From the NCBI GenBank assembly GCA_965215195.1, contig CBDCDC010000002.1:2368001-2432000 (forward strand): DNA of 64,000 nucleotides. Direction: 5' to 3'. The position numbers were made by a program, and so were the translations under genes. Of this stretch, positions 1 to 27,177 are shown piece after piece. How positions within the stretch are numbered: position 1 is the first letter of the stretch; each line of letters begins with the position of its first letter. The notes beneath the pieces were generated by a model. It ran no database searches, had not been told where the DNA came from, and worked only from the letters and a program-made list of their open reading frames with translations. Origin of the DNA: Candidatus Latescibacterota bacterium (GTDB lineage Bacteria; Latescibacterota; UBA2968; UBA8231).

Positions 1-19
1 GATGGTCAAACTCGAATAG
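1..19 (+). CDS. 3' end (MVKLE*) of a further FG-GAP/FlgD-Ig paralog that starts left of the window
   Basis: ATG GTC AAA CTC GAA TAG at 2-19 plus the downstream flank matches the end of the gene 665..2866. Confidence 0.8.
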
Positions 20-65
20 ACACATGAGTCTATTCTCTCTTCGGCCCAGAAAGGAGGTGTATCCC

Positions 66-149
66 GTGCTCGCAGGTTTGATGCCAAGTCAGCGACCACA
101 ACGGTTCGCTGATCCTTTTCCGACCCTTTTGAGGAGAAATGCATTATGA
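66..149 (+). promoter_or_regulatory. Putative leader uORF (MLAGLMPSQRPQRFADPFPTLLRRNAL) behind an extended Shine-Dalgarno, overlapping the peptide start
   Basis: AGAAAGGAGGTG at 48-59, GTG at 66, TGA at 147-149 overlapping ATG at 146; related copies start at 2913, 21250 and 23529. Confidence 0.5.
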
Positions 150-466
150 AGTCCTTAACGTTTGTTTTCGAGGCGACGCTGCTGGCCCCGCTGGTGGAGT
201 TCGCCACGTCGACCAGCGGCCACGTTGAGCCGCGCCAGGGCTTGGCCTTGGGGTGGTTGGGCAGCGTGGTGGCCGGGCTGGCGGTGGTGTTCGGCACGGC
301 CGACCAGGCGCAGGCCGATCCCTGCAACGAAGGCTGGCACTGCTCCAACGATATGTGCGCCGAGGATCACCATGGAAACGGTCTTGCGGCGTGGGACAGA
401 TACTATGTCCACGATGATGAAAATCACTGCACAAACACGATTAGTTCCTGTAGCTGTCCTCCGTAA
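146..466 (+). CDS. Small secreted Cys-rich peptide / RiPP-like precursor 1
   Basis: GAGGAG RBS; hydrophobic h-region and AQA cleavage motif; 49-aa core with 6 Cys; paralog at 2993. Confidence 0.85.
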   Translation: MKSLTFVFEATLLAPLVEFATSTSGHVEPRQGLALGWLGSVVAGLAVVFGTADQAQADPCNEGWHCSNDMCAEDHHGNGLAAWDRYYVHDDENHCTNTISSCSCPP

Positions 467-538
467 TCTACCATCCGAGTATATCATGGCTGTCCAAATA
501 GGAGGATGGTTCTACAGTAAGTGCTGAGAGGTATAGCC

Positions 539-569
539 CATGTGGCACTCTCGGGCCGGGTGCCACATG
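539..569 (+). promoter_or_regulatory. Intergenic stem-loop between peptide gene 1 and the FG-GAP gene
   Basis: CATGTGGCAC...GTGCCACATG 10-bp inverted repeat; conserved at 3395-3423 and degenerate near 5711-5736. Confidence 0.6.
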
Positions 570-664
570 AGATGTTTATCCTCTGGTCTACTGCGTCTGT
601 CGGGTGGACATAGAGAGGGTACTTGATCAGCTCACACTCCTTCCCTCATTGCTGGAGGTAAACT

Positions 665-2866
665 ATGCGCTACTTGCTCTTAGTCATTTTGTTGTTGGCG
701 GCTCCGCTGGGAGTCTTGGCCATAACGTGGGATTTTGACGACGGCACTACTGGGGGCTGGACCGCCCACGAGAGCTTCTTAGGCGAGCTCAGGGCAGTTA
801 CTCCCACCACAGTGTACAGCGAAGTCGAAGCCGGCGTCTGGCGCATTGCGCCGGTGCCGAATGGGCAGATACCGGCCATTCGCTTGCTCTCGCCGCTGAT
901 AGGGGAAGACTCGGCTCTGTTCGACCGGGTCACCCTCCGGCTGCGCATCCTCCACGATCGCCCCACTGGGGGGAACCTCCTGATGAACTGGTCCAATGCC
1001 GAGTCCCGACGCCGCAAGCAGGAAGACTACAGACTAGACAGCCGGTCGGGGTTTTATACGCTCCGTTATCAATACTATCCCATCGACTGGGAAAACGTCA
1101 CGATAGATATACGCGGCTTGGAAGCCGGGGCGGAAGCGAGACGACAAGAGCCGATTGCGACCATTTGGGCGGACACGGCGATCACTTGGCAGGACACCCT
1201 TTTCCACTTGCAGCTAGACCTCAACGTAAACCGCGACCCCCAGGGTCCGGCCGATCATCCGGCCTTTGTCGAAGTCGATTGGATTCAACTGACGGGGGCT
1301 GAAGAGCTGCTGTTCGGGGAATTGCCGCCCCGGGCGGTCGCCGGGGCGGCCGGGGGGCCCGGAGCGTTGTTCGCCGAGCCGCGTTTTTCTCTGCTGGGCT
1401 GGAGTATCGGTAGTCCTCCATTCTCGCAAGGTACGTTGGGCGATATAGATGGCGATGGGGATGCCGATCTGGTGGTGGTCTGGACGTACTTTGAGTCCGT
1501 CAAAGTGACCGAAGGGACGTTTGATCGAACGACCCAAGCGGGCTGGACGGTCGCGTCCAGCGACGGGTTGGGTGGCTTGGTTCCCACCCGAGAAGTGCTC
1601 CGCGGAGGCGAAGATCTCATGGGCATTGCGGGGGGCGATTTCAACGGCGATGGGCTTCTTGATCTGGCCTTTCGTGATGGTCGGACCCTCGAATTGTGGC
1701 TCAACCGGGGCGAGGATGGCTTTGAAACCATCCTCCAGCTATCCGACGTCTCTTTCAAAGGCTTAGCCGATGGCGACGGCGACGGCGATGTGGACCTGTT
1801 GGTCAGGGAATACGACGACCGGTTCCATCTACTATCGTCCGAAGTGATTATGTGGCTCAATGACGGTGCGGCTGGGTTTGCCCACCGCGATCGGTTCGTC
1901 CTCGACACCGAAGAAGATTTCACTCCTCGGCTGACGACGGGGCAACCGGTGGGCGAGGCCGTGCGCGTATTGTGGATCCGAGGGATCCGAGGGTGCTATG
2001 CCGGGGAGGCTCGTCTGACCCAGCCATGGGCGGCCAGCGAGCCACCCCCGCTGTTTCTTGACGCCGAGCTCAATCCCTGCGACCTGCAGCTAATCACCGA
2101 TCTGGATGGGGATGGGACGGTGGAGTTGATCGGGACGCCCGAGCGGAATCTATACTTCGACTTTCTTGATGGCATCACCTACCACGGTTTGGCGCTGTGG
2201 CGGGTGGACGCTGCGGGCGGGGTGGAACGCCACACTCTGCTCGGTCCGCAGGTGATGGTGCCGGATGAGAATTATGGTGGGGTCCTTGCCCACGACCTGA
2301 CTGGTGATGGCCTGCTGGACTTGGCCGTGGTGGATGGCAACCCGGCGACGGGGCCGGCACTGATCGTCTTGGTCGGCCAGCGCGATGGGGTGCCTGTCGT
2401 CGAAGGGCGCTACCCCCTGCCGGGCGTGGGCAGCCAAGTGCTCGCCGGCGATGTCAACGGCGATGGGGCGACCGATCTGGTGGTGCTGGGCAGGAGTGTG
2501 GACGGCGGTTTGGGCGGGGCCTTCGTCTTTCTCAACCAGAGCAGTCCGATGACAGCCGTGGCCAGTGAGACCGCGATCACGCCCTCCACCGTTGCCCTCG
2601 GCGCGAACTACCCCAATCCGTTCAATCCGGCCACGACGATCCCCGTATCGGTGGCGGCGGATGCGGGCGACGTGGCCGTAACCATCTACAACGTCTTGGG
2701 GCAGCCGGTGCGCGCGGTGTGGAACGGTCCGTTGGCGGCGGGCGAGCATCGGCTGACGTGGGATGGCCGAGACGGGCAGGGGCAATCCGTCGCCGCCGGA
2801 GTCTATCTGGTGCGGCTGCACCAAGGCGACCACACGCGCCTGCGCAAGATGGTCAAACTCGAATAG
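665..2866 (+). CDS. Secreted CBM-like domain + FG-GAP/VCBS repeats + C-terminal FlgD-Ig-like sorting domain (paralog A)
   Basis: Signal peptide; repeated GDxDGDGxxDL motifs; GANYPNPFNP...WDGRD...AGVY...KMVKLE tail. Confidence 0.9.
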   Translation: MRYLLLVILLLAAPLGVLAITWDFDDGTTGGWTAHESFLGELRAVTPTTVYSEVEAGVWRIAPVPNGQIPAIRLLSPLIGEDSALFDRVTLRLRILHDRPTGGNLLMNWSNAESRRRKQEDYRLDSRSGFYTLRYQYYPIDWENVTIDIRGLEAGAEARRQEPIATIWADTAITWQDTLFHLQLDLNVNRDPQGPADHPAFVEVDWIQLTGAEELLFGELPPRAVAGAAGGPGALFAEPRFSLLGWSIGSPPFSQGTLGDIDGDGDADLVVVWTYFESVKVTEGTFDRTTQAGWTVASSDGLGGLVPTREVLRGGEDLMGIAGGDFNGDGLLDLAFRDGRTLELWLNRGEDGFETILQLSDVSFKGLADGDGDGDVDLLVREYDDRFHLLSSEVIMWLNDGAAGFAHRDRFVLDTEEDFTPRLTTGQPVGEAVRVLWIRGIRGCYAGEARLTQPWAASEPPPLFLDAELNPCDLQLITDLDGDGTVELIGTPERNLYFDFLDGITYHGLALWRVDAAGGVERHTLLGPQVMVPDENYGGVLAHDLTGDGLLDLAVVDGNPATGPALIVLVGQRDGVPVVEGRYPLPGVGSQVLAGDVNGDGATDLVVLGRSVDGGLGGAFVFLNQSSPMTAVASETAITPSTVALGANYPNPFNPATTIPVSVAADAGDVAVTIYNVLGQPVRAVWNGPLAAGEHRLTWDGRDGQGQSVAAGVYLVRLHQGDHTRLRKMVKLE

Positions 2867-2992
2867 ACACATGAGTCTATTCTCTCTTCGGCCCAGAAAG
2901 GAGGTGTATCCCGTGCTCGCAGGTTTGATGCCAAGTCAGCGACCACAACGGTTCGCTGATCCTTTTCCGACCCTTTTGAGGAGGAATGCATT

Positions 2993-3319
2993 ATGAAGTC
3001 TTTGACGTTTGTTTTGGAGGCGACGCTGCTGGCCCCGCTGATGGAGTTCGCCACGTCGACCAGCGGCCACGTGGAGCCGCGCCAGGGCTTGGCCCTCGGC
3101 TGGCTGGGTAGCGTGGTGGCCGGGCTGGCGGTGGTGTTCGGCACGGCCGACCGGGCGCAGGCCGATCCTTGCAACGAAGGCTGGCACTGCTCCGACCCCC
3201 CCGAGGCATGCGAGTGGCATAAAAATGGAAACGTTCTAAAGTCGTGGAACTACTACTATAGCCACAGTCCTACTGATGGCTGTATAAGGTCGTCAAGTTC
3301 CTGTGTCTGTACTCCGTGA
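2993..3319 (+). CDS. Small secreted Cys-rich peptide / RiPP-like precursor 2
   Basis: Leader nearly identical to precursor 1; 51-aa core with 6 Cys; GAGGAG RBS. Confidence 0.85.
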   Translation: MKSLTFVLEATLLAPLMEFATSTSGHVEPRQGLALGWLGSVVAGLAVVFGTADRAQADPCNEGWHCSDPPEACEWHKNGNVLKSWNYYYSHSPTDGCIRSSSSCVCTP

Positions 3320-3517
3320 TCTACCATCCGGGTATATGGTGGCTGTCGCCAAATAGGAGGACGGTGCTGTAGTACATGCTGAGACGTATAGCCCATGTGG
3401 CACTTTAGGGCTGGGTGCCACATCGGCTTTTGGCTTCTGTTCTACTGCGTCTATCCCTCGAATAGAGGTAGGGTGTTTGAGCAGCTAACACTTCTCCACT
3501 GACTCAGGAGGTGCATT

Positions 3518-5704
3518 ATGCGCTGCTTGTTCATTACGATTGGCTTGTTGGCGGCTCCGCTGGGAGCCTTCGGTTTAACGTGGGATTTTGACGAGGGCAC
3601 CACTTGGGGCTGGACCGCCCACGAGAGCGAATTAGGCAATGATGGTGGCGTTCGTCCCACCACGGTGTACAGCGAAGTCGAAGACGGCGTCTGGCGCATT
3701 GCGCCGGTGCCGGTCGCGCAACGACCCGCCATTCGCTTGCTCTCGCCGCTGATAGGGGAAGACTCGGCCCTGTTCGACCAGGTCACCCTGCGGCTACGCA
3801 TCATCCACGACCGCCCCACTTGGGGAAACCTCCTGATGTACTGGTCCAATGGCGAGTCCAGACGCCGCAAGCAGGAAGCGGGCCAACTCGGAAGCAGCAG
3901 GTTGGGGTTTTATACGCTTCGTCTTCAACTCTATCCCATCGAATGGGAAAACATCACGATAGATATACGCGCCTTGGAAGCGGCGGCGGAAGCGAGACGA
4001 CAAGAGCCGGTCGCGACCATTTGGCCGGACACCGCGGTCACGTGGCAGGACACCCTCTTCCACTTGCAACTAGACCTAAACTTAAACCAAGACGCTCAAG
4101 GTCCGGCCGATCATCCGGCCTTTGTCGAAGTCGATTGGATCCAACTGACGGGGGCCGAAGAGTTGCTGCTGGGGGAATTGCCGCCCCGGGCGATTGCCGA
4201 GACTGGGCTACCCGGCGCGTTGTTCGCCGAACCGCGCTTTTCTGTGCTGGGTCCGGGTATCGGTGGCGTATTCTCGCAAGGTGTTTTGGGCGATGTGGAC
4301 GGCGATGGGGATGCTGATCTGGTGGTGGTCTGGAGATACTACACGGTCGTCTGGATAACCGAAGAGACGGTTGAGACGACGTCCCATACGGGCTGGACCA
4401 TAGCGTCCAGCGACGGGTTGGGCGGCTTGGTTCCCACCCGAGAGGTGCTCCTTCCAAGCCAAGACAGGTTCGCGCCCCTCATGGGGATTGCGGGGGGCGA
4501 TTTCGACGGGGATGGGCTTTTCGATCTGGCCTTTGAGGAAGGATTGAACCTTGAACTGTGGCTCAACCGAGGCGAGCATGGCTTTGAAACCATCCTCCAA
4601 CTATCCGACGTCTATTTCAAAGGCTTAGCCGATGGCGACGGCGATGGCGATGTGGACCTGTTGGTCGGGGAGATCGACGACCCATGGTCCAACGTGATTA
4701 TGTGGCTCAATGACGGCGTGGGCGGTTTTGGCCACAGCGATGGGTTCGTCCTCGATACCGAGGAAGAGCTCGGTTCTTTCCTGCTGGCCGGGCAACCGGG
4801 AGGCGAGGCCGTGCGCGTGTTGTGGAACCGACCCTGCTACCAGCCGTTGGGTACTTGGCGGCTGACCCAGCCGTGGGCGGCCAGCGAGCAGTCTCCGCTG
4901 TTTTTTGACGCCGAGGTCAATCCCTGTGACCTGCATCTGCTGACCGATCTGGATGGGGATGGGGCAGTGGAGTTCATCGGGACGCCCGAGCGGAATCTAT
5001 TCTTCGACTTTGATGCGATCACCACCTACCACGGTTTGGCGCTGTGGCGGGTGGACGCTGCGGGCAGGGTGGAACGCCACGACCTGCTCGGTCCGCAGGT
5101 GATGGTGCCGTATGCGGGGGGAGTCCTTGCCCGTGACCTGAGCGGCGATGGCCTGCTGGACTTGGCCGTAGTGGATGTCAACCCGGCGACGGGTCCGGCG
5201 CTGGTGGTGCTGGTCGGCCAGCGCGATGGGGTGCCCGTCGTTGAGGGGCGCTATCCGCTGCCGGGCGTGGGCAGCCAAGTGCTCGCCGGCGATGTCAACG
5301 GCGATGGGGCGACCGATCTGGTGGTGTTGGGCAGGAGTGTGGAAGGGGGCGACGGCGGGGCCTTCGTCTTTCTCAACCAGAGCAGTCCGATGACAGCCGT
5401 AGCGGTTGAGTCGGCCACGCCATCGGCTTTTACCCTCGGCGCGAACTATCCCAATCCATTCAATCCGGCTACGACCCTCCCCGTATCGGTGGCGGCAGAT
5501 GCGGGCGACGTGGCCGTAACCATCTACAACGTCTTGGGGCAGCCGGTGCGCGCGGTGTGGAACGGTCCGTTGGCGGCGGGCGAGCATCGGCTGACGTGGG
5601 ATGGCCGAGACGGGCAGGGGCAATCCGTCGCCGCCGGAGTCTATTTGTATCGGTTGCAGGTGGGCGAGCAGACACGTCTCCGCAAGATGGTCAAACTCGA
5701 ATAG
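3518..5704 (+). CDS. FG-GAP/FlgD-Ig paralog B
   Basis: Same architecture as A; GGAGG RBS. Confidence 0.9.
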   Translation: MRCLFITIGLLAAPLGAFGLTWDFDEGTTWGWTAHESELGNDGGVRPTTVYSEVEDGVWRIAPVPVAQRPAIRLLSPLIGEDSALFDQVTLRLRIIHDRPTWGNLLMYWSNGESRRRKQEAGQLGSSRLGFYTLRLQLYPIEWENITIDIRALEAAAEARRQEPVATIWPDTAVTWQDTLFHLQLDLNLNQDAQGPADHPAFVEVDWIQLTGAEELLLGELPPRAIAETGLPGALFAEPRFSVLGPGIGGVFSQGVLGDVDGDGDADLVVVWRYYTVVWITEETVETTSHTGWTIASSDGLGGLVPTREVLLPSQDRFAPLMGIAGGDFDGDGLFDLAFEEGLNLELWLNRGEHGFETILQLSDVYFKGLADGDGDGDVDLLVGEIDDPWSNVIMWLNDGVGGFGHSDGFVLDTEEELGSFLLAGQPGGEAVRVLWNRPCYQPLGTWRLTQPWAASEQSPLFFDAEVNPCDLHLLTDLDGDGAVEFIGTPERNLFFDFDAITTYHGLALWRVDAAGRVERHDLLGPQVMVPYAGGVLARDLSGDGLLDLAVVDVNPATGPALVVLVGQRDGVPVVEGRYPLPGVGSQVLAGDVNGDGATDLVVLGRSVEGGDGGAFVFLNQSSPMTAVAVESATPSAFTLGANYPNPFNPATTLPVSVAADAGDVAVTIYNVLGQPVRAVWNGPLAAGEHRLTWDGRDGQGQSVAAGVYLYRLQVGEQTRLRKMVKLE

Positions 5705-5833
5705 ACACATTGGCACTCTAGGGCCGGATGCCACATGGACTAATGGTCCTCTGTTCTACTGCGTCTATCCCTCGAATACGAATGGAGGTAGGGCGTTTGA
5801 TCGGCTCACACTCCCCCACTCTGGAGGTGCATT

Positions 5834-8038
5834 ATGCGCTACTTGCTCACTACGATTGGCTTGTTGTCGGCACCACTTGGAGCCTTCGCTTTAACGTGGG
5901 ATTTTGACGAGGGGACAACTTGGGGCTGGACCGCCTACGAGAGCATCTTAGGCAATCTCAGTTCAGTTACTCGCACCACGGTGTACAGCGAAGTCGAAGC
6001 TGGCGTCTGGCGCATTGCGCCGGTGCCGAATGGGGAAAGACCGGCCATTAGCTTACTCTCGCCGCTGATAGGGGAAGACTCGGCTCTGTTCGACCGGGTC
6101 ACCCTCCGGCTGCGCATCCTCCACGATCGCCCCACCGGGGGGAACCTCCTGATGAACTGGTCCAATGCCGAGTCCCGACGCCGCAAGCAGGAAGACTACA
6201 GACTAGCCAGCCGGTCGGGGTTTTATACGCTCCGTCCTCAACTCTATCCCATCGAATGGGAAAACGTCACGATAGATATACGCGCCTTGGAAGCCGCGGC
6301 GGAAGCGAGACGACAAGAGCCGATTGCGACCATTTGGGCGGACACGGCGATCACTTGGCAGGACACCCTCTTCCACGTGCAGCTAGACCTAAACTTACAC
6401 ACCAACCCCCAGGGTCCGGCCGATCATCCGGCCTTTGTCGAAGTCGATTGGATTGAACTGACGGGGGCTGAAGAGTTGCTGTTCGGAGAATTGCAGCCCC
6501 GGGCGATCGCCGAGGCCGGGTTGCCCGGGGCGTTGTTCACCGAGCCGCGTTTTTCTGCTTTGGGCCCGAGTATCGGTAGCTCATCCTCGCAAGGTACGTT
6601 GGGCGATGTAGATGGCGATGGGGATGCCGATTTGGTGGTGGTTTGGACCCACGACACGGTCGTCAAAGTGACCGAAGAGACGTTTGAGAGGACGACTCAA
6701 GCGGGCTGGACCATAGCGGCCAGCGACGAGTTGGGCGGTTTGATCCCCACCCGAGAGGTGCTTCTTCTAGGCGAAGATCGCTTGGGGATTGCGGGGGGCG
6801 ATTTCGATGGCGATGGGCTGCTCGATCTGGCCTTTATTGAAGGTACTCAGGGTATTAATCAGACCCTCGAATTGTGGCACAATCGGGGCGAGCAGGGCTT
6901 TGAAACCATCCTCCAGCTATCCGACATCTATTTCGAAGGCCTCGCCGATAGCGACGGCGACAGCGATGTGGACCTGTTGGTCGGGGAGTACGACGAGCTA
7001 CGGGACGAGCTAGTATGGTCGCAGGTGATTATGTGGATTAACAACGGCGCGGCCGGGTTTGCCGACCGCAATCGGTTCGCCGTCGGCAGCGAAGAAGATC
7101 TCTTGCCTTTCCTGCTGGCAGGGCAGCCGTTGGGCGAGGCCGTGCGCCTGTTGTGGCTGCGACCCTGCTACCAGCCTCAGGGGCTTTGGCGGCTGACCCA
7201 GCCGTGGGCGGCCAGCCAGCCCTCCCCGCTGTTTTTTGACGCCGAGGTCAATCCCTGCAACTTGCACCTGCTGACCGATCTGGATGGGGATGGAGCGGTG
7301 GAGTTGGTTGGGTCGCCCGAGCGGGATCTATTCTCCAACTTTGATGCTGGCTCCACCTACCACGGTTTGGCGCTGTGGCGGGTGGATGCCTCGGGCGAGG
7401 TGGAACGCCACGACCTGCTCGGTCCGCAGGTGCTCGTGCCGGATGAGAATTATGGTGGGGTCCTTGCCCGCGACCTGACTGGCGATGGCCTGCTGGACTT
7501 GGCCGTAGTGGATGTCAACCCGGCGACGGGGCCGGCGCTGGTGGTGCTGGTCGGCCAGCGCGATGGGGTGCCTGTCGTCGAGGGGCGCTATCCCCTGCCG
7601 GGCGTGGGCAGCCAAGTGCTCGCCGGCGATGTCAACGGCGATGGGGCTGTTGATCTGGTGGTGCTGGGCAGGAGTGTGGACGGCGGTCTCGGCGGGGCCT
7701 TCGTCTTTCTCAACCAGAGCAGTCCGCCTACAGCCGTAGCGGTTGAGTCGGCCACGCCATCGGCTTTTGCCCTCGGCGCGAACTATCCCAATCCATTCAA
7801 TCCAGCCACGACCCTTCCCGTATCGGTGGCGGGTGCGGGCGACGTGGCCGTAACCATCTACAACGTCTTGGGGCAGCCGGTGCGTCAAGTATGGAACGGT
7901 CCGCTGGCGGCGGGCGAGCATCGGCTGACGTGGGATGGCCGAGACGGGCAGGGGCAGCCGGTCGCGGCCGGGGTCTATCTGGTGCGGCTGCACCAAGGCG
8001 ACCACACGCGCCTCCGCAAGATGGTCAAACTCGAATAG
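5834..8038 (+). CDS. FG-GAP/FlgD-Ig paralog C
   Basis: Same architecture as A; GGAGG RBS. Confidence 0.9.
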   Translation: MRYLLTTIGLLSAPLGAFALTWDFDEGTTWGWTAYESILGNLSSVTRTTVYSEVEAGVWRIAPVPNGERPAISLLSPLIGEDSALFDRVTLRLRILHDRPTGGNLLMNWSNAESRRRKQEDYRLASRSGFYTLRPQLYPIEWENVTIDIRALEAAAEARRQEPIATIWADTAITWQDTLFHVQLDLNLHTNPQGPADHPAFVEVDWIELTGAEELLFGELQPRAIAEAGLPGALFTEPRFSALGPSIGSSSSQGTLGDVDGDGDADLVVVWTHDTVVKVTEETFERTTQAGWTIAASDELGGLIPTREVLLLGEDRLGIAGGDFDGDGLLDLAFIEGTQGINQTLELWHNRGEQGFETILQLSDIYFEGLADSDGDSDVDLLVGEYDELRDELVWSQVIMWINNGAAGFADRNRFAVGSEEDLLPFLLAGQPLGEAVRLLWLRPCYQPQGLWRLTQPWAASQPSPLFFDAEVNPCNLHLLTDLDGDGAVELVGSPERDLFSNFDAGSTYHGLALWRVDASGEVERHDLLGPQVLVPDENYGGVLARDLTGDGLLDLAVVDVNPATGPALVVLVGQRDGVPVVEGRYPLPGVGSQVLAGDVNGDGAVDLVVLGRSVDGGLGGAFVFLNQSSPPTAVAVESATPSAFALGANYPNPFNPATTLPVSVAGAGDVAVTIYNVLGQPVRQVWNGPLAAGEHRLTWDGRDGQGQPVAAGVYLVRLHQGDHTRLRKMVKLE

Positions 8039-8059
8039 ACACATGAACTGGGAGCGGAC

Positions 8060-14905: not shown

Positions 14906-15177
14906 GGGCTGTTGTGCCGCAATACTATAACCACGTTTGCCAAGAACTCGGCGATCTGCTGGGCATTTCCGGCTAAGCGCATATACGCCGACGTTAGGCG
15001 GTCAGACAAGGCGGATGAAACCCGCCTCGCCATAGAGCAGGCAGACGGGCGCAGGCTACACGTTCCTGTCCGCGCAAAAGATCGAAAATTTGCCGAAGAC
15101 CTCTCCGCGGAGCGCAAGTGAGTACGCTTACAGCAAGTCCTTGCCGACCCCAACGGGTTTTAGAAACGCATCTAAAG

Positions 15178-17388: not shown

Positions 17389-17399
17389 ACGACCGAGCT

Positions 17400-17700
17400 T
17401 GGAGCCGACATGCTGGAGAAATTGCGCCACTTGCAGCATTTAAGCATCCGGCTGAAATGGGCCGGCACGGTTGAAGGGCTGCCGCGCCACGAGTGCCCCG
17501 TACTGATCTTTTTCCACGGCTACGGCTTGGCTCACACCATCCGCCCGCTGCGGGTGCGCGGCTACCCCGTCGAATTCGCAGGAGTGGGGCCTCCGCCGAA
17601 AATTCCGGCAGGGTCGGTGGGCTGTGCGCGTTCAATATTACCATTCCCCGAAGTCGATCCCAACTAGACAAAAACGGACGATTGAATGGGGGGGCGCGTG
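17400..17700 (+). pseudogene. Collapsed relict of the GT1-TGase / GT2 / paralog D block
   Basis: Matches 8050-8275, then short pieces of 12519-12611, then 13500-13540. Confidence 0.8.
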
Positions 17701-17733
17701 TTAGGTGCTGCCGAAAAGAGAGGGCATAAGACG

Positions 17734-21203: not shown

Positions 21204-21319
21204 ACGACCCGAGTCTATCATCCCTCCGGCCAGAAAGGAGGTGTATTCCGTGCTCGCAGGTTTGATGCCAAGTCAGCAACCACAATGTCTTGTGTTCTAC
21301 CTCTAAAGGGAGACAAACT

Positions 21320-23482
21320 ATGCGCTGCTTGCTCATTGCTATTGGCTTGTTGGCTATTCCACACGGAGTCTTCGCCCTAACGTGGGATTTTGACGAAGAC
21401 ATCACTTGGGGCTGGACCGCTCACGAGAGTGGCTACGGCAATGACATTGGAGTTAGTCCCACCACGGTGTACAGCGAAGTCGAAGAGGGCGTTTGGCGCA
21501 TTGCTCCCGTGCCGGGTGCTCAACGACCTGCCATTAAGTTGCGCTCGCCGCCGATTGGGGAAGACTCCACCCTGTTCGACTGGGTCACCCTACGGCTACG
21601 CCTCATACACCATCGCCCCACCGCGGGACAGTTCCAAATGGCGTGGTTCAATGCCGAGTACAGACGCCTCAGGGAGGAATTAGGACCAACCTCACCAGAT
21701 TATAGGCAGAAGTTTTATATGGTACGTTATCAAATCTATCCGACTGAATGGCAAGACATCACTATAAATATACGCCGGGCCTTGGAAGCAGATCTAGCAG
21801 AAAGAGAAAAGGAGATCGTTTGGCAGGACACCCTCTTTGAATTTCATATAGAGCTAAGTTTAAACGACAACGCGCAGGGCCCGGCTGATCATCCGGCCTT
21901 TTTAGAAGTGGACTGGATTCAACTGACAGGGGCCGAAGAACTGCTGCTGGGGGAGTTGCAGCCCCGGGAGATCGCCGTGGAGGTCGGATTGCCCGGCGCG
22001 TTATTCGCCGAGCCCGACTTTTTCCCCCTCGGCGAAGGCATCGAGAAAATCCTCAGTTTGGTACTCCCGCAAGGTGCTTTGGGGGATGTGGATGGCGATG
22101 AGGATGTGGATCTCGTGGCGGTCTGGGAGCGCCGTACGAACAACGGAGGAGTCCTAGAAGTAGAACAGGGCTGGCTGGTGGCGTCCAACGACGGTCTGGG
22201 AGGCTTTGTCCCCACCCGAGAGGTTTCCTTCTTCAAGATAGCGAAGGGCTCTTACCCACAACTTGTCGTTGCGGGGGGCGATTTCGACGGGGATGGACTC
22301 CTCGATCTGGCCGTTTCGAGGGGTGTTTCCGTTGAACTGTGGCACAATCGGGGCAAGGACGGCTTTGAACCCATTCTGCAATTATCCGATTTCGCTTTCG
22401 TTAGCCTCGCCGATGGCGATGGCGACGGCGACGTGGACCTGTTGGGCTTGGAAGTAGGCGACACATGGTCCAATGTGATTATGTGGTTCAACGATGGCGA
22501 CGCCGGGTTTGTCCGTAGCGATCGGTTCGTCCTCGATAGCGAGGAGCCCCTGTTTCCCTTGCCGCTGGCTGGGCAACCCTTGGGCGAGGCCGTGCGCCTG
22601 TTATGGATCCGGCCGTGCTACCTGCCCCAAGGGACTTGGCAACTGATCCGACCGTGGGCGACCAGCAGGGAACCGCCGCTGTTTTTTGACGCCGTGGTCA
22701 ACCCCTGTACCCAATTGCACTTGCTCGTCGATCTAGATGGCAATGGAGAGGTGGAGTTCGTCGGAACTCCCGATCGGGATCTACAATTTGAACTTCACGG
22801 CGGCATCACCTACCACGGTTTGGCGCTGTGGCGTCTGGGTGCCTCGGGCGTGTTGGCACGCCACACCCTGCTTGGCTCACAGGTGCTCATGCCGCATCGC
22901 GCCATTACCAGCGACCTGACCGGCGATGGCCTTTTGGACTTGGCCGTGGTCGATGGCAACTTGGCCACCGGGCCGGCGCTGGTGGTGCTGGTCGGCCAGC
23001 GCAATGGCGTACCCGTCGTCGAAGGCCGCTACCCCCTGCCGGGCGTGGGCAGCCAAGTGCTCGCCGGGGATGTCAACGGCGATGGGGCGACCGATCTGCT
23101 CGTGCTGGGAAGGAGTATGGAAGGCGGTCTCGGCGGGGCCTTCGTCTTTCTCAACCAAGGCGGTCCGGCCACTGCTATCGCGGTCGAGACGACGGCTACG
23201 CCCGCAACATTTGCGTTGGGTGCCAACTATCCCAACCCGTTCAATCCAGCCACAACGATCCCCGTATCGGTGGCGGGTGCGGGCGACGTGGATGTAACGA
23301 TCTACAACGTCTTGGGGCAGCCGGTGCGCGAGGTGTGGAACGGTCCGTTGGCGGCGGGCGAGCATCGGCTAACTTGGGATGGTCGAGACGCGCAGGGGCA
23401 GCCGGTCGCCGCCGGGGTCTATTTGTATCGGCTGCACCAAGGCGACCAGACGCGCATCCGCAAAATGGTCAAAATCGAATAG
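21320..23482 (+). CDS. FG-GAP/FlgD-Ig paralog G
   Basis: Same architecture as A; start MRCLLIAIG after GGGAG. Confidence 0.9.
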   Translation: MRCLLIAIGLLAIPHGVFALTWDFDEDITWGWTAHESGYGNDIGVSPTTVYSEVEEGVWRIAPVPGAQRPAIKLRSPPIGEDSTLFDWVTLRLRLIHHRPTAGQFQMAWFNAEYRRLREELGPTSPDYRQKFYMVRYQIYPTEWQDITINIRRALEADLAEREKEIVWQDTLFEFHIELSLNDNAQGPADHPAFLEVDWIQLTGAEELLLGELQPREIAVEVGLPGALFAEPDFFPLGEGIEKILSLVLPQGALGDVDGDEDVDLVAVWERRTNNGGVLEVEQGWLVASNDGLGGFVPTREVSFFKIAKGSYPQLVVAGGDFDGDGLLDLAVSRGVSVELWHNRGKDGFEPILQLSDFAFVSLADGDGDGDVDLLGLEVGDTWSNVIMWFNDGDAGFVRSDRFVLDSEEPLFPLPLAGQPLGEAVRLLWIRPCYLPQGTWQLIRPWATSREPPLFFDAVVNPCTQLHLLVDLDGNGEVEFVGTPDRDLQFELHGGITYHGLALWRLGASGVLARHTLLGSQVLMPHRAITSDLTGDGLLDLAVVDGNLATGPALVVLVGQRNGVPVVEGRYPLPGVGSQVLAGDVNGDGATDLLVLGRSMEGGLGGAFVFLNQGGPATAIAVETTATPATFALGANYPNPFNPATTIPVSVAGAGDVDVTIYNVLGQPVREVWNGPLAAGEHRLTWDGRDAQGQPVAAGVYLYRLHQGDQTRIRKMVKIE

Positions 23483-23640
23483 ACGACCCGAGTCTATCAT
23501 CTCTTCGGCCAGAAAGGAGGTGTATTCCGTGCTCGTAGATTTGATGCCAAGTCAGCAACCACAACGGTTTGCTGGTCATTTTTCCTACCACTCAAGGAGG
23601 ATTTAGTTATGAAGTCTTTGCCTCTAAAGGGAGGTTCGTT

Positions 23641-25737
23641 ATGCGCTGCTTGCTCTTTGCTATTGGATTATTGGCCGCTCCACTGGGAGCCTTTGCCCTA
23701 ACATGGAATTTTGACGAGGGCACCACTTGGGGCTGGACCGCCCAAGAGAGTAGCCACAGCAGTGGGACTACAGGGAATGTCACCACGGTGTCCAGCGAAG
23801 TCGAAGACGGTGTCTGGCGCATCGCTCCGGTGCCTACCGCGCAACGACCGGCCCTTCAATTGCGTTCACCCCCGATTGGGGAAGACTCCGCCCTGTTCGA
23901 CTGGGTCACCCTACGGCTGCGCATCATTCACCATCGCCCCACTACGGGGCGGCTCGAAATGGTGTGGTTCAATTCCGAGTACAGACGCCTTGATGCGTAC
24001 CGACACCTAGAATTGTGGCCTCAGTTTCATACGGGACGTTATCAAATCTATCTCACGGAATGGCAAGACATCACCATAGATATACGGGCCTTGGAAGCGG
24101 ACCCAGAAACAGAGGTCACTTGGCAGGATACCCTTTTCGACTTCCAGATAGACTTGGATTTAAACACTGACCCGCAGGGCCCGGCTGATCATCCGGCCTT
24201 TTTAGAAGTGGACTGGATTCAACTGACAGGGGTCGAAGAGTTGCTGCTGGGGGAATTGCCGCCCCGGGAAATCGCTGTGGAGGCGGGATCGCCCGGCGCG
24301 TTGTTCGCCGCACCGGACTTTTTCCCCCTCGGCGAGGGCATCGGGAACAGAAGCGGTCTGCGAGAATCGCCGGGCACTTTGGGCGATGTGGACGGCGATG
24401 GAGATATGGATCTCGTGGCGGTCTGGCAGCGCCTTACAGACCACGGATCATTCCTTGGCTGGACAATAGCGTCACAAGACGGCTTGGGACGCTTGGTCCC
24501 CACCCTAGAGGCCACGCGCCAAGCCACGAGAATTGATCTCCAAGGGAGCGACTTCGACGGGGATGGGCTCTTAGATCTGGTCTTCTCTGGAGACCAGATC
24601 GTCGAACTGTGGCACAACTGGGGCGAGGACGGCTTTGAGACCACGCTGCGGCTGTCCGGCGTCGGGCTCCTTGGCCTAGCTGATGGCGATGGCGATGGCG
24701 ATGTGGACCTCTTGGTTATAGACTTGGATGACGAGACAGCCCACGTGATCTTATGGATCAACGATGGCGACGACGGATTTGTCCGCAGTGATCGGTTCGA
24801 TCTCGACAGCGAAGAGGAGCTGCTTCCTTACCTGCTCCCCGGGCAGCCTCTGGGCGAGGCCGTGCGCCTGTTATGGAACCGACCGTGCTATCAGCCCCAA
24901 GGGCCTTGGCAACTGACCCGGCCGTGGGCGGCCAGCGAGGAGTCGCCGCTGTTTTTCGAGGCGGAGGTCAACCCCTGTAACCTGCACCTGCTCGCCGATG
25001 TGGATGGCGATGGGGCGATGGATGTACTCGGCTCCCCCGAGAGAAGAAAGTTCCCCGGCACCACCTACTACGGTTTGACGCTGTGGCGTCTGGACACTTC
25101 GGGAGTGTTGACCCGCCACCCTCTACTCGGCTCGCAGGTGCTCGCGTCGCATCGGGCCATTGCCCACGACCTGACCGGCGATGGCCTTTTGGACTTGGCC
25201 GTGGTCGATGGCAACTTGGCCACCGGGCCGGCGCTGGTGGTGCTGGTCGGCCAGCGCGCTGGCGTGCCCGTTGTCGAAGGCCGCTACCCCCTGCCGGGCG
25301 TGGGCAGCCAAGTGCTCGCCGGGGATGTCAACGGCGATGGGGCGACCGATCTGGTGGTGCTGGGCAGGAGTGTGGACGGCGGTTCGGGCGGGGCCTTCGT
25401 CTTTCTCAACCAGAGCGTCCCGATGACAGCCGTGGCCCCGGAGGCGACCACCCCCTCAACCGTTGCCCTCGGTGCCAACTATCCCAACCCATTCAATCCG
25501 GCCACGACTATCCCTTTGGCCCTGCCCGCCGGAACTAGCGACATGGATTTAACGATCTACAACACGTTGGGGCAGCCGGTGCGCCAAGTGTGGAACGGTC
25601 CGTTGGCGGCGGGCGAGCATCGGCTAACTTGGGATGGTCGGGACGCGCAAGGGCATCCGGTAGCCGCCGGGGTCTATTTGTATCGGTTGCAGGTGGAAGA
25701 CCAGACGCGCCTGCGCAAAATGGTCAAAATCGAATAG
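23641..25737 (+). CDS. FG-GAP/FlgD-Ig paralog H
   Basis: Same architecture as A; start MRCLLFAIG after GGAGG. Confidence 0.9.
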   Translation: MRCLLFAIGLLAAPLGAFALTWNFDEGTTWGWTAQESSHSSGTTGNVTTVSSEVEDGVWRIAPVPTAQRPALQLRSPPIGEDSALFDWVTLRLRIIHHRPTTGRLEMVWFNSEYRRLDAYRHLELWPQFHTGRYQIYLTEWQDITIDIRALEADPETEVTWQDTLFDFQIDLDLNTDPQGPADHPAFLEVDWIQLTGVEELLLGELPPREIAVEAGSPGALFAAPDFFPLGEGIGNRSGLRESPGTLGDVDGDGDMDLVAVWQRLTDHGSFLGWTIASQDGLGRLVPTLEATRQATRIDLQGSDFDGDGLLDLVFSGDQIVELWHNWGEDGFETTLRLSGVGLLGLADGDGDGDVDLLVIDLDDETAHVILWINDGDDGFVRSDRFDLDSEEELLPYLLPGQPLGEAVRLLWNRPCYQPQGPWQLTRPWAASEESPLFFEAEVNPCNLHLLADVDGDGAMDVLGSPERRKFPGTTYYGLTLWRLDTSGVLTRHPLLGSQVLASHRAIAHDLTGDGLLDLAVVDGNLATGPALVVLVGQRAGVPVVEGRYPLPGVGSQVLAGDVNGDGATDLVVLGRSVDGGSGGAFVFLNQSVPMTAVAPEATTPSTVALGANYPNPFNPATTIPLALPAGTSDMDLTIYNTLGQPVRQVWNGPLAAGEHRLTWDGRDAQGHPVAAGVYLYRLQVEDQTRLRKMVKIE

Positions 25738-25830
25738 ACGCACGAACTTGTAACGGACATGCTTGAGATATTGCGCCGACACATAGCGGCTGGCAGCGTT
25801 TCATGGAACGATTGAATGGGGGGGCGTGGG
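25738..25830 (+). pseudogene. Second, shorter relict of the enzyme block
   Basis: CGGACATGCT..TTGCGCC.ACACATAGCG matches 8055-8090, joined to ACGATTGAAT.GGGGGC (end of paralog D). Confidence 0.65.
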
Positions 25831-25872
25831 GATGTGGATTAGGCCCTGCCGAAAAGAGAAAGGCATAAGACA

Positions 25873-27177
25873 ATGATACGGCCATGGAAAGTCCCATTCC
25901 GAAAAAATAGAAAGCTGCAAAGCTGCTTGGCGGTGTCGCTGGCCTTGCATCTGCTGGTGATCTTCGGACTCCCGCGCCACGAGCGGGTCACCCACTTTCC
26001 CTTGCAACCGCCGATCATGGTGAAGTTTACCAAGAAGCGCCCGCTGCCGCGCACCCTCGCCCGCCGCCAACGACCCCAACAGCGCCCGTTGGTGCGCCGC
26101 CCCGCCCTGCAAGCGGCCCCGGTCGTAGCGATGCGGCCGGCTCCCTCGGCGTCGCGCCCGCTACCGGTGTTCAAGTCGTCGGCTCTCCGACTGCCAACGG
26201 CGGCACTGCCGGCGCGGCTGGTGATGCCCGTGCCGGATTTCCCCGCTCGGCAGATTGGTCCATCCCTACAGGCGGGGGCATTGGAAGGGACGCGGCAGGG
26301 CGCGGACGAGATTGACTTGGCGTTGGAACTGATGGACGTGCAGGCACTGGACACGGGTCAGCATCGGGCAATGGTCGTCGTCGATCCCCAAGACCGGCGC
26401 AAGCTCAAGGGCTTCCTCTATATGTCCAATGTTTATAGCCCGTCCATTGACCGAGCTGAACGGGAAACATCGCGCCGACTGTACGAGGCGCGCCAACAGG
26501 CTGAGCGGCGGATGCTGCAAGGGTTGGCCGATAAGATGGTCGCCAGTACGCAAGTCCAAGTTGAGGTGCGCGACGCAGTGGCGCTCGACAGCCCGCAGCT
26601 TTTGCAAGTGCCCTTCGTGTTGCTGACGGCGAGTGGGCCTTTTGAGTTTACCGAGGCGGAGGCGGCCAACTTAGGGGCCTATTTGACTTCGGGTGGCTTC
26701 CTGTTTGCCGAGATTGTGCGCGAGTTGCGACCCAATTACAGCGACGCCGAATTAGACATCTTGGCGGTGCGTTCCCTGCTGCGCACCAGCTTCCAAGCGG
26801 TAGGTTATCAAGAGTGGAAGGATTGGCAGTTTAGCCGGCTGGAACTAACCCATCCGCTCTATCATTGTTTCTACGATGTAAACAGCCTCCCCCGCGGGAT
26901 GCGCGATATGCACTATACAGGATCTGCGCCGCTAACCCCGGACTATTTGGAGGGCATCGTAGTAGGGGACCAGCTAGTGGGGGTGTATTCGATGCGCGGC
27001 TACGCGGATTTCTGGGCGGGAAGTGCCCAGTTGGAGTGGGAGGCACTTGATGTGGTCAATAGTCCGTTTATCGCCAGTGCCGAGGAGCCGTTGGTGTATA
27101 ATTTGGGCGTCAATATCGTGGTGTACGCGTTGACGCGGGAAGGATCATTGGCTCAACAATTCGTCGAGGCGGACTGA
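25873..27177 (+). CDS. DUF4159-like protein 3
   Basis: Close paralog of 17734..19044. Confidence 0.8.
   Translation: MIRPWKVPFRKNRKLQSCLAVSLALHLLVIFGLPRHERVTHFPLQPPIMVKFTKKRPLPRTLARRQRPQQRPLVRRPALQAAPVVAMRPAPSASRPLPVFKSSALRLPTAALPARLVMPVPDFPARQIGPSLQAGALEGTRQGADEIDLALELMDVQALDTGQHRAMVVVDPQDRRKLKGFLYMSNVYSPSIDRAERETSRRLYEARQQAERRMLQGLADKMVASTQVQVEVRDAVALDSPQLLQVPFVLLTASGPFEFTEAEAANLGAYLTSGGFLFAEIVRELRPNYSDAELDILAVRSLLRTSFQAVGYQEWKDWQFSRLELTHPLYHCFYDVNSLPRGMRDMHYTGSAPLTPDYLEGIVVGDQLVGVYSMRGYADFWAGSAQLEWEALDVVNSPFIASAEEPLVYNLGVNIVVYALTREGSLAQQFVEAD

Follow-up and report, generated by a model that had tools for sequence, protein, structure and literature searches.

An array of conserved-leader, hypervariable Cys-rich mini-proteins with candidate FG-GAP carriers and an A24 peptidase in Candidatus Latescibacterota

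Introduction

Bacterial pilins have Gly at position −1, followed by a hydrophobic helix with Glu at position +5. Glycocins are made with a double-glycine leader and are served by a C39-domain ATP-binding cassette (ABC) transporter, and their core is a helical hairpin with two nested disulfides. The lasso peptide pathway combines a B protease with an Asn-synthetase-like cyclase and an RRE/PqqD domain. Conotoxin-type families join a conserved signal or pro-region to a hypervariable Cys-framework toxin. We know of no described piggy-back transport through the type IX secretion system (T9SS), although no search was aimed at it. Here, we describe an array of genes for Cys-rich peptides and FG-GAP propeller proteins in a stretch of 64,000 nucleotides (the window) from a Candidatus Latescibacterota bacterium (GenBank assembly GCA_965215195.1, contig CBDCDC010000002.1, positions 2,368,001 to 2,432,000). 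A sequence-only reading of the window had proposed a new peptide system, and its parts are compared here with the systems named above.

On balance, and with moderate confidence, we read the array as belonging to a lineage-restricted system that makes, folds and exports hypervariable disulfide-rich mini-proteins of about 50 amino acids (aa) together with cognate T9SS carriers. The combination consists of an A24 peptidase that is accompanied by redox genes and lacks a filament system, a leader that is invariant at the protein level on hypervariable mini-domains, and co-varying T9SS-tailed propellers. The components are known families; the combination apparently matches no system that can be named, and its mechanism is largely inferred.

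Leader and core of the peptide precursors

Two peptide genes lie in the window, at positions 146–466 and 2993–3319. A third belongs to the leftmost cassette of the array, 2.7 kb left of the window (G000:C2:2365309-2365635 in the source genome), and that cassette extends to 2368019; both genes of the window are on the plus strand. The precursors are 106–108 aa long (106 aa for gene 1, 108 aa for gene 2) and consist of a 57-aa leader, near-identical between the copies, and a core of 49–51 aa with six Cys. The core of peptide 1 has 49 aa, and that of peptide 2 is divergent from it. Of 192 candidates in a homolog search, 184 proteins reached E ≤ 0.01. All 120 listed homologs are without a Pfam domain, and every source name among them is 'hypothetical protein'. 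Alignments used 25 and then 90 of these 120. In the 25-member alignment the leader is near-invariant, and the core conserves little besides Cys. A 36-codon block of the leader, taken from 24 genes of about ten genomes, has a single amino acid at most positions, encoded by 2–4 synonymous codons, and the constraint on the leader therefore acts on the protein and not on the DNA. Among the three tandem copies, the ratio of nonsynonymous to synonymous substitution rates (dN/dS) is 0–0.19 for the leader. For the core, dN is 0.30–0.43 versus a dS of 0.23–0.33, a ratio of about 0.9–1.8, with the Cys kept. The FG-GAP genes of the same tandem copies have dN/dS of about 0.35–0.5. The sequence-only reading had proposed a diversified library of secreted Cys-rich peptides, and the homologs, the invariant leader and a core dN/dS of about 1 or above establish a real, conserved and diversifying family of Cys-rich, predicted exported mini-proteins.

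Structure prediction gives the core as a four-stranded mini-domain with a predicted local distance difference test (pLDDT) score of 88–94; the first 39 residues of the precursor are of low confidence. A Foldseek search of the peptide model against the PDB returned 0 matches at E ≤ 0.001, and neither Pfam nor NCBIfam matches the core. The top non-significant fold neighbours include the defensin-like bacteriocin laterosporulin (6lwy/4ozk; E 1.1–1.4, template modelling score 0.41 on the target).

The leader contains a hydrophobic helix, placed at residues 31–52 by hydropathy and at 35–56 in the model, followed by Ala-x-Ala (A-x-A). Across all leader types, a leader profile has Phe19, Gly25, Trp37 and Ala57 invariant and Ser24 nearly so. 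This profile detected 130 clusters (50% identity) at E ≤ 0.001 among 1.84 billion representatives, nearly all of 50–130 aa with the leader at the N terminus, and all 20 short proteins (95–119 aa) of the 22 matches fetched have variable Cys-rich cores. A basic-x-Gly motif lies ahead of the helix: Gly is present in 16 of 18 aligned leaders and is followed by Leu or Phe and the hydrophobic helix, and the candidate +5 position is Trp or Ser in these leaders, never Glu. By its sequence, the leader resembles a class III (prepilin-type) signal. Export of the leader by the twin-arginine translocation (Tat) route was considered and rejected: some Arg-Arg pairs occur, but in most leaders Gln or Glu takes the place of the second Arg.

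Proteins of 217–300 aa with one or two core modules and a T9SS tail begin with the same leader. The hydrophobic helix of the leader is most likely removed, because these tailed proteins must leave the inner membrane. A leader typical of peptides synthesized on ribosomes and modified after translation (RiPPs), which the sequence-only reading had recognized here, is not upheld, given the membrane-spanning helix, the A-x-A site and the presence of the same leader on T9SS-tailed proteins. At one locus of the source genome (L033; G000:C2:2778107-2779012 and 2779092-2779991), two proteins of about 300 aa consist of a type-A leader, as in the window, two tandem core modules and a C-terminal T9SS domain. 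They correspond, in fused form, to the arrangement in which a free peptide stands beside a tailed FG-GAP protein. In the ESM Atlas, the nearest clusters to the product of 2993-3316 are hypothetical proteins of about 90 aa, mostly labelled Candidatus Poribacteria, with scores of 0.84 and 0.79; these lie below the 0.9 line and serve as a lead only. Related peptides may thus occur in another phylum.

A24 peptidase and redox genes at the head of the operon

Five genes that form the head of the operon lie directly left of the window and were invisible to the sequence-only reading. The first is the gene of a sigma-54 activator whose sensor domains are Reg_prop and Y_Y_Y. The second (G000:C2:2362317-2363435) encodes a 372-aa Peptidase_A24 protein (30.7 bits; cut-off 26.5), and the third a 205-aa membrane-anchored protein with a weak FMN_bind/RnfG match and a Ser-Gly-Ala-Thr site, which we take to be a flavinylation motif. 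The fourth and fifth, between the peptidase gene and the first peptide gene, encode two ResA/TlpA-like CxxC thioredoxins with N-terminal anchors. Both catalytic Asp motifs of the A24 protein (Asp33 and Gly-Asp-Ala-Lys-Leu) are invariant in 8 sequences, and in the ESM Atlas the protein is nearest to clusters of archaeal-type A24 and Arc_PepC. A scan for the sigma-54 promoter consensus gave no support: it has 33 matches with ≤2 mismatches in the window versus 31.6 expected, and none lies in the 5′ regions of the peptide genes.

A second leader type (type B) occurs in other genomes in long arrays, in which genes for 8-Cys cores alternate with FG-GAP genes. The type-B locus of the source genome is likewise equipped with an A24 gene (35.0 bits), a gene paralogous to that of the 205-aa protein and two redoxin genes, and the two leader types pair with two A24 subtypes. 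Type-B loci, and those type-A loci that extend far enough upstream, share the order of activator, A24, FMN-binding protein, thioredoxins and first peptide. The genome contains only two PF01478 matches, each beside a peptide array. The type IV filament ATPase PF00437 (T2SSE) and the platform protein PF00482 (T2SSF) have 0 matches in this genome, which is 95.2% complete in 2 contigs, and control searches were positive in 13 of 14 genomes.

Five distant loci, of which two belong to other families of the class, have genes for the FMN-binding protein, the thioredoxin(s) and A24, with 1–3 small leader-bearing Cys-rich genes immediately after them. No FG-GAP gene and no gene for a fused GT1 glycosyltransferase and transglutaminase, such as occurs in the window, was found within about 7 kb of these five loci. 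The conserved core module is made up of the A24 peptidase, the FMN-binding protein, the thioredoxin(s) and the leader peptide(s).

FG-GAP propellers as predicted partners

The complete FG-GAP/VCBS proteins of the window comprise seven of 712–756 aa with a FlgD_ig/T9SS type A sorting domain and one that is tail-less, so that 7 of the 8 complete copies are tailed, having the Pfam FlgD_ig/Por_Secre_tail region. In the two FG-GAP proteins scanned, TIGR04183 scored 34.6 and 36.6 bits versus a cut-off of 23, and simple hydropathy places a signal peptide on all copies. FG-GAP protein 1 (665–2866; 733 aa) has a Sec signal, a beta-sandwich, a seven-bladed propeller and a T9SS type A C-terminal domain. 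Its model (pLDDT 81, predicted template modelling score 0.76) places the beta-sandwich at about residues 19–210 and the propeller at about 240–625, ahead of the C-terminal domain. Its fold matches, with E values of 1e-7 to 1e-5, are CRTAC1, UmbA4, integrin alpha, PVL-type lectins, rhamnose-glucuronate lyase and PorZ; the structures matched by the propeller in Foldseek are 9etn, 9oee, 3zdz, 2bwm and 4tqj, and that of PorZ is 5m11.

A complex was modelled for a single pairing, residues 19–640 of FG-GAP 1 with its own peptide core (residues 58–106). The cognate pair scored 0.76 (runs 0.00, 0.80 and 0.76) versus 0.01 for the best of 3 controls, with a partner pLDDT of at least 56. Of 80 solved complexes, 58 passed the mark used, as did 2 of 110 mismatched pairs; these counts are only approximate because own alignments were used. 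The model places the core between the beta-sandwich and the propeller's top face, in an interface of about 100 contacts that would bury most of the core. On the FG-GAP 1 side, the predicted contacts fall near residues 38–46, 102–135, 250–253, 276–288 and 502–504.

Two analyses made without the score of the complex are in line with this placement. The 48 contact residues of the model have a mean column entropy of 2.00 bits versus 0.80 for the other 574 (Mann-Whitney p 1.5e-14; 19 type-A FG-GAP proteins). Restricted to loops, contact entropy is 2.41 (n 25) versus 0.77 (n 260). Contacts account for 25 of the 62 most variable FG-GAP positions, and most of the others adjoin contacts. The FG-GAP alignment has 40 rows, 35 of 56 locus frames and 5 from the window, and the entropy was computed on the 19 rows that are ≥60% identical to FG-GAP 1. 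Consistently, a partial Mantel test of core distance versus contact-residue distance, given the rest of the protein, yields r 0.37 (p 0.015; 9 pairs) and, in a second set, r 0.50 (p 0.0004; 14 pairs). The reverse tests give r 0.06 and 0.14 and are not significant. The input was 23 non-identical peptide/FG-GAP pairs collected by a motif script, which dropped leader genes without a full FG-GAP frame within 450 nucleotides (nt). Of the checks that the sequence-only reading had called for, the comparison of peptide with FG-GAP divergence and the co-folding of a cognate pair agree with its proposal: the core tracks the contact residues, and the score of the predicted complex stands clear of its controls. 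Its wider claim that each peptide has a cognate propeller holds in part: predicted binding and covariation at the contacts support it, but only 3 of 9 FG-GAP genes have a peptide, and distant relatives have no FG-GAP gene nearby.

Searches for SprA, PorU and PorV indicate a T9SS in the genome. SprA scores 499 bits (cut-off 200) and PorU 629 bits (cut-off 420), and next to PorU is a PorV-like gene whose 148 bits fall short of the cut-off of 250. The core module is either free beside a tailed FG-GAP gene or itself fused to a T9SS tail, and for this reason we favour the FG-GAP protein as a carrier; roles in immunity or as a receptor are live alternatives.

Occurrence in other genomes

A pattern scan of species-representative genomes found 17 loci, in metagenome-assembled genomes (MAGs) labelled Candidatus Latescibacterota and in one labelled Gemmatimonadota. 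An FG-GAP gene lies within 500 bp after the leader gene in 14 of the 17. Seven loci have the full order of peptide, FG-GAP, GT1-transglutaminase, GT2, (TPR), tail-less FG-GAP and DUF4159, in which the tetratricopeptide repeat (TPR) gene is not constant; the other loci are cut by contig ends or rearranged. Gene order is kept across species-level genomes at 60–89% protein identity. The suggestion that the parts would be linked in other genomes is borne out by this recurrence in other Candidatus Latescibacterota genomes.

The leader is present in 27 of 75 other genomes of the family to which the source genome belongs; among 92 genomes that sample 13 other families of the phylum, it has 0 occurrences. 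The GT1-transglutaminase fusion is present in 32 of the 75 and likewise in 0 of the 92. Within the 75 family genomes, leader and A24 occur together in 25, the leader only in 2 (one of them 75% complete), A24 only in 2 and neither in 46. For leader and GT1-transglutaminase, the corresponding numbers are 19, 8, 13 and 35. In occurrence as in position, the best partner of the leader is the A24 gene with its redox genes, ahead of the glycosyltransferases. These counts come from related genomes, which are not independent. The source genome itself has, in four or five loci, about ten leader-bearing genes, 30 frames matching FG-GAP 1 at E ≤ 1e-60, 11 full DUF4159 paralogs and 5 full GT1-transglutaminase genes.

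Glycosyltransferase and transglutaminase-like enzymes

The enzyme block of the window begins with an 832-aa fusion of a GT1 glycosyltransferase of the macrolide/UDP-glycosyltransferase type to a transglutaminase-like core, with 17 Cys (8060–10558). It is followed by a 358-aa GT2 glycosyltransferase (10560–11636) and a 640-aa tail-less FG-GAP protein with a signal peptide (11603–13525; alternative start 11633). Neither glycosyltransferase protein has a signal peptide or an anchor, and both are therefore predicted to be cytoplasmic; the DUF4159 proteins have an N-terminal membrane anchor by hydropathy. The GT1 domain is of the macrolide/natural-product type, with matches to CalG2, YjiC and OleD (E down to 2e-15). 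The GT1 donor-binding motif and the His/Cys/His of the transglutaminase are invariant in the alignment, which used 30 of 120 listed homologs. The fusion family is small, with 142 proteins at E ≤ 1e-10 among 8000 scored, and the named ones are from Latescibacterota or Gemmatimonadota MAGs. GT1-transglutaminase proteins are about 85% identical among type-A loci and about 40% identical to those of type-B loci. The block is absent from the ancestral-looking core loci.

The GT2 resembles polysaccharide-type GT2s over its N-terminal 110–120 residues only. Neither it nor a GT2-TPR paralog matched a glycocin transferase among PDB sequences, where only polysaccharide-type GT2s and TPR proteins were found and the presence of a SunS entry in the set is unverified. 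The DUF4159 protein has a single weak match in the PDB sequence search, 4i66 (E 0.013). In other genomes, a TPR_12-type gene separates the GT2 gene from the tail-less FG-GAP gene at most type-A loci (16082-17422 in L003; also L004, L007 and L009-L011). The window is without such a gene, and its GT2 and tail-less FG-GAP genes overlap by 4 bases. Two identities that the sequence-only reading had brought up for these enzymes are not supported. A glycocin (SunS-type) pathway finds no sequence match between the GT2 and a PDB glycocin transferase, and the core is predicted to be beta-rich. A lasso-type pathway would call for domains that Pfam did not detect in the large genes of the locus and its head (Asn_synthase, PqqD), and the transglutaminase core is fused to GT1.

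Paralogous enzyme blocks occur at two other loci of the source genome. At L026 (G000:C1:790000-802300), a block of GT1-transglutaminase, GT2 and TPR paralogs is accompanied by two ABC-2 permeases, a DUF1573 protein and two small secreted 4-Cys peptides with an ordinary short signal peptide (C1:791390-791638 and C1:796005-796211). At L027 (G000:C2:4361378-4369488), several genes of the kind common in bacteriocin loci come after a fourth GT1-transglutaminase paralog: an 856-aa GT2-TPR fusion, a stand-alone Peptidase_C39 (181 aa; C2:4366628-4367173), a 101-aa open reading frame (ORF) with Gly-Gly, a Rce1/CPBP-like gene and a Yip1 gene.

Layout of the array and RNA elements

The window from position 1 to 27177 is a single array on the plus strand, to which all coordinates in this section refer. 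It comprises 2 peptide genes, 8 complete FG-GAP genes and the tail of a ninth, the GT1-transglutaminase fusion gene, the GT2 gene and 3 DUF4159 genes by Pfam and NCBIfam scans. The left end of the array lies outside the window at G000:C2:2365309, and extension of the contig to the left, as the sequence-only reading had advised, added one cassette and raised the total to 3 peptide genes. With 2 peptide genes in the window and 3 in the array, only 3 of the 9 FG-GAP genes have a neighbouring peptide gene. The other elements of the layout in that reading, namely the one-strand array of more than 27 kb with its 2847-bp period, the nine FG-GAP paralogs (8 complete and one cut), the enzyme block and the three DUF4159 genes, were all recovered, and Pfam and NCBIfam upheld the domain calls. 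The 2847-bp spacing is seen in the 96% identity of window positions 1–300 to 2848–3147, and repeat analysis of the window finds most FG-GAP segments in 5–7 copies.

The first 19 bases (1–19) are the end of the FG-GAP gene of the leftmost cassette, the ninth copy, whose full gene is at G000:C2:2365830-2368019. The cassette of peptide gene 1 has its 5′ untranslated leader at 46–145 and an intercistronic hairpin at 535–573 (core 542–566), between the peptide and FG-GAP genes. In the second cassette the 5′ untranslated leader is at 2893–2992, the intercistronic hairpin at 3390–3428 (core 3397–3421) and FG-GAP protein 2 (728 aa, T9SS tail) at 3518–5704. FG-GAP protein 3 (734 aa, T9SS tail; 5834–8038) has no preceding peptide gene and stands before the enzyme block. 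To the right of the block follow DUF4159 protein a (455 aa, N-terminal membrane anchor; 13538–14905) and FG-GAP protein 4, which has a T9SS tail and is the most divergent copy of the window (15118–17388; likely start 15175). A GT1-transglutaminase remnant at 17389–17664 keeps only the N-terminal 90 aa or so and is a trace of a duplicated, decayed enzyme block; the ORF 17410-17667 belongs to this remnant and is not a peptide gene. DUF4159 protein b (17686–19044), FG-GAP protein 5 with a T9SS tail (19065–21203), FG-GAP protein 6 (21290–23482; likely start 21320), FG-GAP protein 7 (23569–25737; likely start 23641) and DUF4159 protein c (25873–27177) complete the array. A second, remnant GT1-transglutaminase gene and the repeats show that the right half of the array arose as a duplicate of the left half and has partly decayed.

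The constant parts of the array are very similar. The 5′ ends of the DUF4159 genes with their upstream regions (13500-13862, 17660-18022 and 25799-26161) are 95–96% identical, and the remaining parts of these genes diverge more; the three left cassettes likewise agree at about 100% in the peptide leaders and in the final 120 nt or so of the FG-GAP genes. This suggests gene conversion. Short-read contigs from runs of 3 studies contain both peptide cores with 0–1 differences. These contigs are 120–390 nt long and none spans a cassette junction, so that they do not settle the question of misassembly, and the order of the cassette copies rests on the 2-contig assembly alone. No RNA dataset with the array sequence was found among the 22 runs listed, 20 of which carry the sequence.

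Conserved in 15 sequences, the 5′ untranslated leader of the peptide genes contains an invariant purine-rich 12-mer about 90 nt before the ATG (48–59 and 2895–2906 in the two copies of the window) and a 10-bp hairpin with two covarying pairs (89–112 and 2936–2959). The 12-mer is also predicted to pair with a pyrimidine run in a closing helix. The ribosome-binding site of peptide gene 1 lies directly before the ATG and is separate from this Shine–Dalgarno-like 12-mer. An upstream ORF, from the 12-mer to a stop/start overlapping the peptide ATG, was considered and rejected, its start codon being missing in 3 of 15 sequences, and the element is read as RNA. Rfam gave one chance-level match in positions 1–9000 and none to the 5′ untranslated leader. 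The 12-mer also occurs at 21232–21243 and 23511–23522, before FG-GAP genes 6 and 7, which have no peptide gene after it, as if the peptide genes had been deleted there. The hairpin between peptide and FG-GAP genes has compensatory changes at 9 of 16 pairs in 12 sequences and may set the ratio of peptide to FG-GAP transcripts. A scan of 1–9000 for sigma-70 promoters and terminators gave counts as in shuffled sequences, and only the hairpin at 539–569 was of use.

Downstream of the array, a 1098-aa TPR and DUF7133/GSDH-like protein (27209–30505) is a possible member only. It has a weak match to the N terminus of a PVC-type haem-binding family, one paralog in the genome (G000:C2:3500993-3503392) and a syntenic homolog after an FG-GAP gene in one other genome (L016). 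The plus strand from 30596 to 36694 encodes a GH99/WbsX-like protein, a PhyH dioxygenase and a 770-aa protein with lamin-tail and Exo_endo_phos domains.

Proposed mechanism and alternative explanations

In the mechanism that we propose, the A24 enzyme would be a dedicated leader peptidase that probably cuts at Arg-x-Gly before the hydrophobic helix, at the cytoplasmic face of the membrane, and a cut at A-x-A would release the core into the periplasm. Two processing events, one by A24 and one at Ala-x-Ala, are suggested by the leader sequence and by its presence on T9SS-tailed proteins. The thioredoxin/flavoprotein set would form the disulfides of the core. In this genus, the FG-GAP protein would then clamp the folded core between its sandwich and the top of its propeller, in a pocket of its most variable residues, and would act as the cognate carrier that takes the tail-less peptide out through the T9SS. 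The cytoplasmic GT1-transglutaminase, the GT2 and, elsewhere, the TPR proteins may be accessory enzymes. Outside the cell, the peptides may be antimicrobial or may serve adhesion or recognition. We hold only tentatively the more far-reaching version, in which a prepilin-type peptidase has been recruited without a pilus as a leader peptidase for mini-proteins, and venom-like cores are handed to a co-diversifying propeller clamp for T9SS export, giving a ligand/carrier or self-recognition library without a described counterpart.

Several points weigh against this reading. Cleavage, disulfides, binding and secretion are all predicted only. Signal peptidase I acting at the A-x-A site could by itself account for export, and the role of A24 is therefore conjectural. 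The Gly of the candidate A24 site is replaced by Ala or Val in two peptides of one locus (L039), and the Glu of pilins is absent from the leaders at +5. One of the three runs of the complex gave 0.00, and the lower bound on the share of contacts common to the runs is 0%. The significance of the Mantel tests is overstated, because paralog pairs are not independent, and both the entropy and the Mantel tests draw on small numbers. The contacts lie on top loops of the propeller, which are often variable in any propeller, a concern that the loop control reduces but does not remove. The propeller is an add-on and not a requirement, as shown by the 3 of 9 FG-GAP genes that have a peptide gene and by the five distant loci without FG-GAP nearby. 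The GT1-transglutaminase and GT2 are unexplained, 8 leader-positive genomes being without the fusion and 13 genomes having the fusion without a detected leader.

These enzymes are central to an RiPP or glycocin-like explanation, in which the leader recruits the GT1-transglutaminase and GT2, the core is glycosylated or cross-linked, and the transglutaminase-like domain removes the leader before export. The conserved position of GT1-transglutaminase, GT2 and often TPR genes after the first peptide/FG-GAP pair in 7 of the 17 loci speaks for it, as do the catalytic motifs kept in all three enzyme domains, the GT1-transglutaminase subtypes that follow the leader types, and a GT2-TPR fusion whose architecture resembles that of peptide or protein glycosyltransferases. 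Paralogous blocks also stand beside small secreted Cys peptides, Peptidase_C39, a Gly-Gly ORF and a CPBP/Rce1-like gene, and this recurring company with small peptides keeps open a peptide-modifying role of the enzyme block, doubtful as we consider that role to be. However, the leader with its membrane helix and A-x-A also heads T9SS-tailed proteins. An RRE/PqqD domain, a lasso cyclase and a C39 transporter are missing from the locus, and the likeness of the GT2 among PDB sequences is to polysaccharide-type enzymes over its first 110–120 residues, with no glycocin transferase matched. The co-occurrence of the fusion with the leader (both in 19 genomes, leader only in 8, fusion only in 13) is looser than that of A24, and such enzymes are not near the distant loci of A24 and peptide genes. 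We consider this explanation quite unlikely; it is compatible with the carrier system that we prefer and does not exclude it. Far less probable still is the absence of any functional coupling, that is, an ordinary FG-GAP expansion in which duplication swept along unrelated small secreted proteins and enzymes. With 30 FG-GAP frames and 11 DUF4159 copies, the genome shows heavy duplication of the family, and adjacency could therefore be inherited. This view is already disfavoured by the gene order kept across species-level genomes at 60–89% protein identity, the nearly perfect co-occurrence with A24, a complex model that passes with clean controls, and contact residues that are the variable ones and co-vary with the peptide.

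Tandem polymorphic cassettes with a core dN/dS of about 1 or above and Cys kept, a hypervariable pocket that co-varies with the peptide, and a predicted interface that would bury most of the core would also be expected of toxin-immunity pairs, in which the Cys-rich peptide is antimicrobial and the FG-GAP protein is its specific neutraliser or immunity protein instead of its carrier. The best fold neighbours of the core, laterosporulin 6lwy/4ozk, fit this picture, but the match is not significant and antimicrobial activity is conjectural. An immunity protein would be expected to stay with the producer, whereas the FG-GAP proteins carry a T9SS tail, with which surface display is still compatible; moreover, the array has 6 orphan FG-GAP copies versus 3 peptides. 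This alternative appears unlikely to us. The adjacency of the A24 gene to the peptide genes, and a precursor with basic-x-Gly, a hydrophobic helix of about 18 residues and a small, predicted disulfide-bonded head, would also suit pilin-like subunits that are cut by A24 and built into a fibre through their hydrophobic N-terminal helix. A role in a pilus is nevertheless highly improbable, because neither the T2SSE ATPase nor the T2SSF platform is found in the genome (95.2% complete, 2 contigs). In addition, Glu is missing at +5, a conserved A-x-A follows the helix, and the leader is also found on T9SS-tailed proteins that must leave the inner membrane.

Novelty and implications

In the portions of open-access papers and preprints available to us, there is no description of this gene set or of prepilin peptidases that serve Cys-rich peptides, which agrees with the impression of the sequence-only reading that no described class has these genes. 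Among the open-access papers and preprints covered, none joins Latescibacter with FG-GAP. Listed papers that pair prepilin peptidases with RiPPs, cysteine-rich peptides or bacteriocins do not, to judge from titles and the openings of abstracts, deal with such a system. DUF4159 appears, in the literature as far as it was accessible, only in a paper on the Pfam database, and the accessible part of PMC12993501, on Latescibacterota genomes, does not mention FG-GAP, transglutaminase, type IX or integrin. The DUF4159 paralogs and the GT1-transglutaminase fusion, both orphans so far, gain a first context from the array.

If the proposed mechanism is true, A24 prepilin-type peptidases would have a role outside type IV filaments, and the leader motif with its 130 clusters would be searchable. 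Small, confidently modelled three-disulfide domains under diversifying selection, together with natural cognate binders of mapped pocket residues, would be pairs in which the evolution of specificity can be studied, and they would be a possible source of antimicrobial or adhesion peptides. The array would also be a testable case of a tail-less protein that exits the cell on a T9SS cargo. The phylum is uncultured, and therefore every step is testable only by expression in surrogate hosts.

Comparison with known systems

The class III signal/A24 systems (PilD, TadV and archaeal FlaK/PibD) share with this locus a GxGD enzyme with both Asp motifs, which is nearest here to archaeal-type A24 and Arc_PepC, a basic-x-Gly before the hydrophobic helix of the candidate substrates, and an enzyme gene beside the candidate substrate genes. 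They differ in that no filament ATPase or platform was found in the genome studied here, the conserved N-region is long (about 32 aa), Glu at +5 is absent, a second site of the signal-peptidase-I-like A-x-A type is present, and the cargo is a hypervariable Cys-rich mini-domain. Glycocins (sublancin/SunS) are similar in having a small Cys-containing ribosomal peptide beside a GT2, and the sister loci have TPR partners of the GT2. Unlike glycocins, however, the peptides have no Gly-Gly site before the core, neither the array nor its head contains a C39 or ABC gene, a likeness of the GT2 to SunS was not detected at the sequence level, and the core is predicted to be beta-rich with 3 disulfides. 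The lasso pathway differs from this locus, in which the transglutaminase core is fused to GT1 and neither cyclase nor PqqD domain is present. Conotoxin-type families resemble the peptides in a conserved N-terminal part, many paralogs and a core dN/dS of about 1 or above with the Cys kept. In contrast to them, the peptides are bacterial, are linked to a peptidase, redox genes and a predicted cognate binder, and have no known toxicity.

T9SS type A cargo is similar to the FG-GAP proteins in having a Sec signal and a TIGR04183 tail, SprA, PorU and a PorV-like protein are present, and PorZ is a propeller-containing component of the T9SS itself; the difference is that the cargo is proposed here to carry a second, tail-less protein. 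Polymorphic toxin or bacteriocin-immunity pairs, such as colicins and contact-dependent inhibition (CDI) systems, likewise consist of tandem, fast-diverging pairs with a co-varying predicted interface, but the partner here is a 730-aa propeller with export signals, a toxin domain is missing and killing is conjectural. The propellers of integrin alpha, PVL-type lectins, CRTAC1 and UmbA4 share with these proteins the seven-bladed FG-GAP fold and a ligand predicted on the top face. In contrast to those propellers, an added N-terminal beta-sandwich is predicted to close over the ligand in the array proteins, which have a T9SS tail and whose ligand would be the product of the neighbouring gene.

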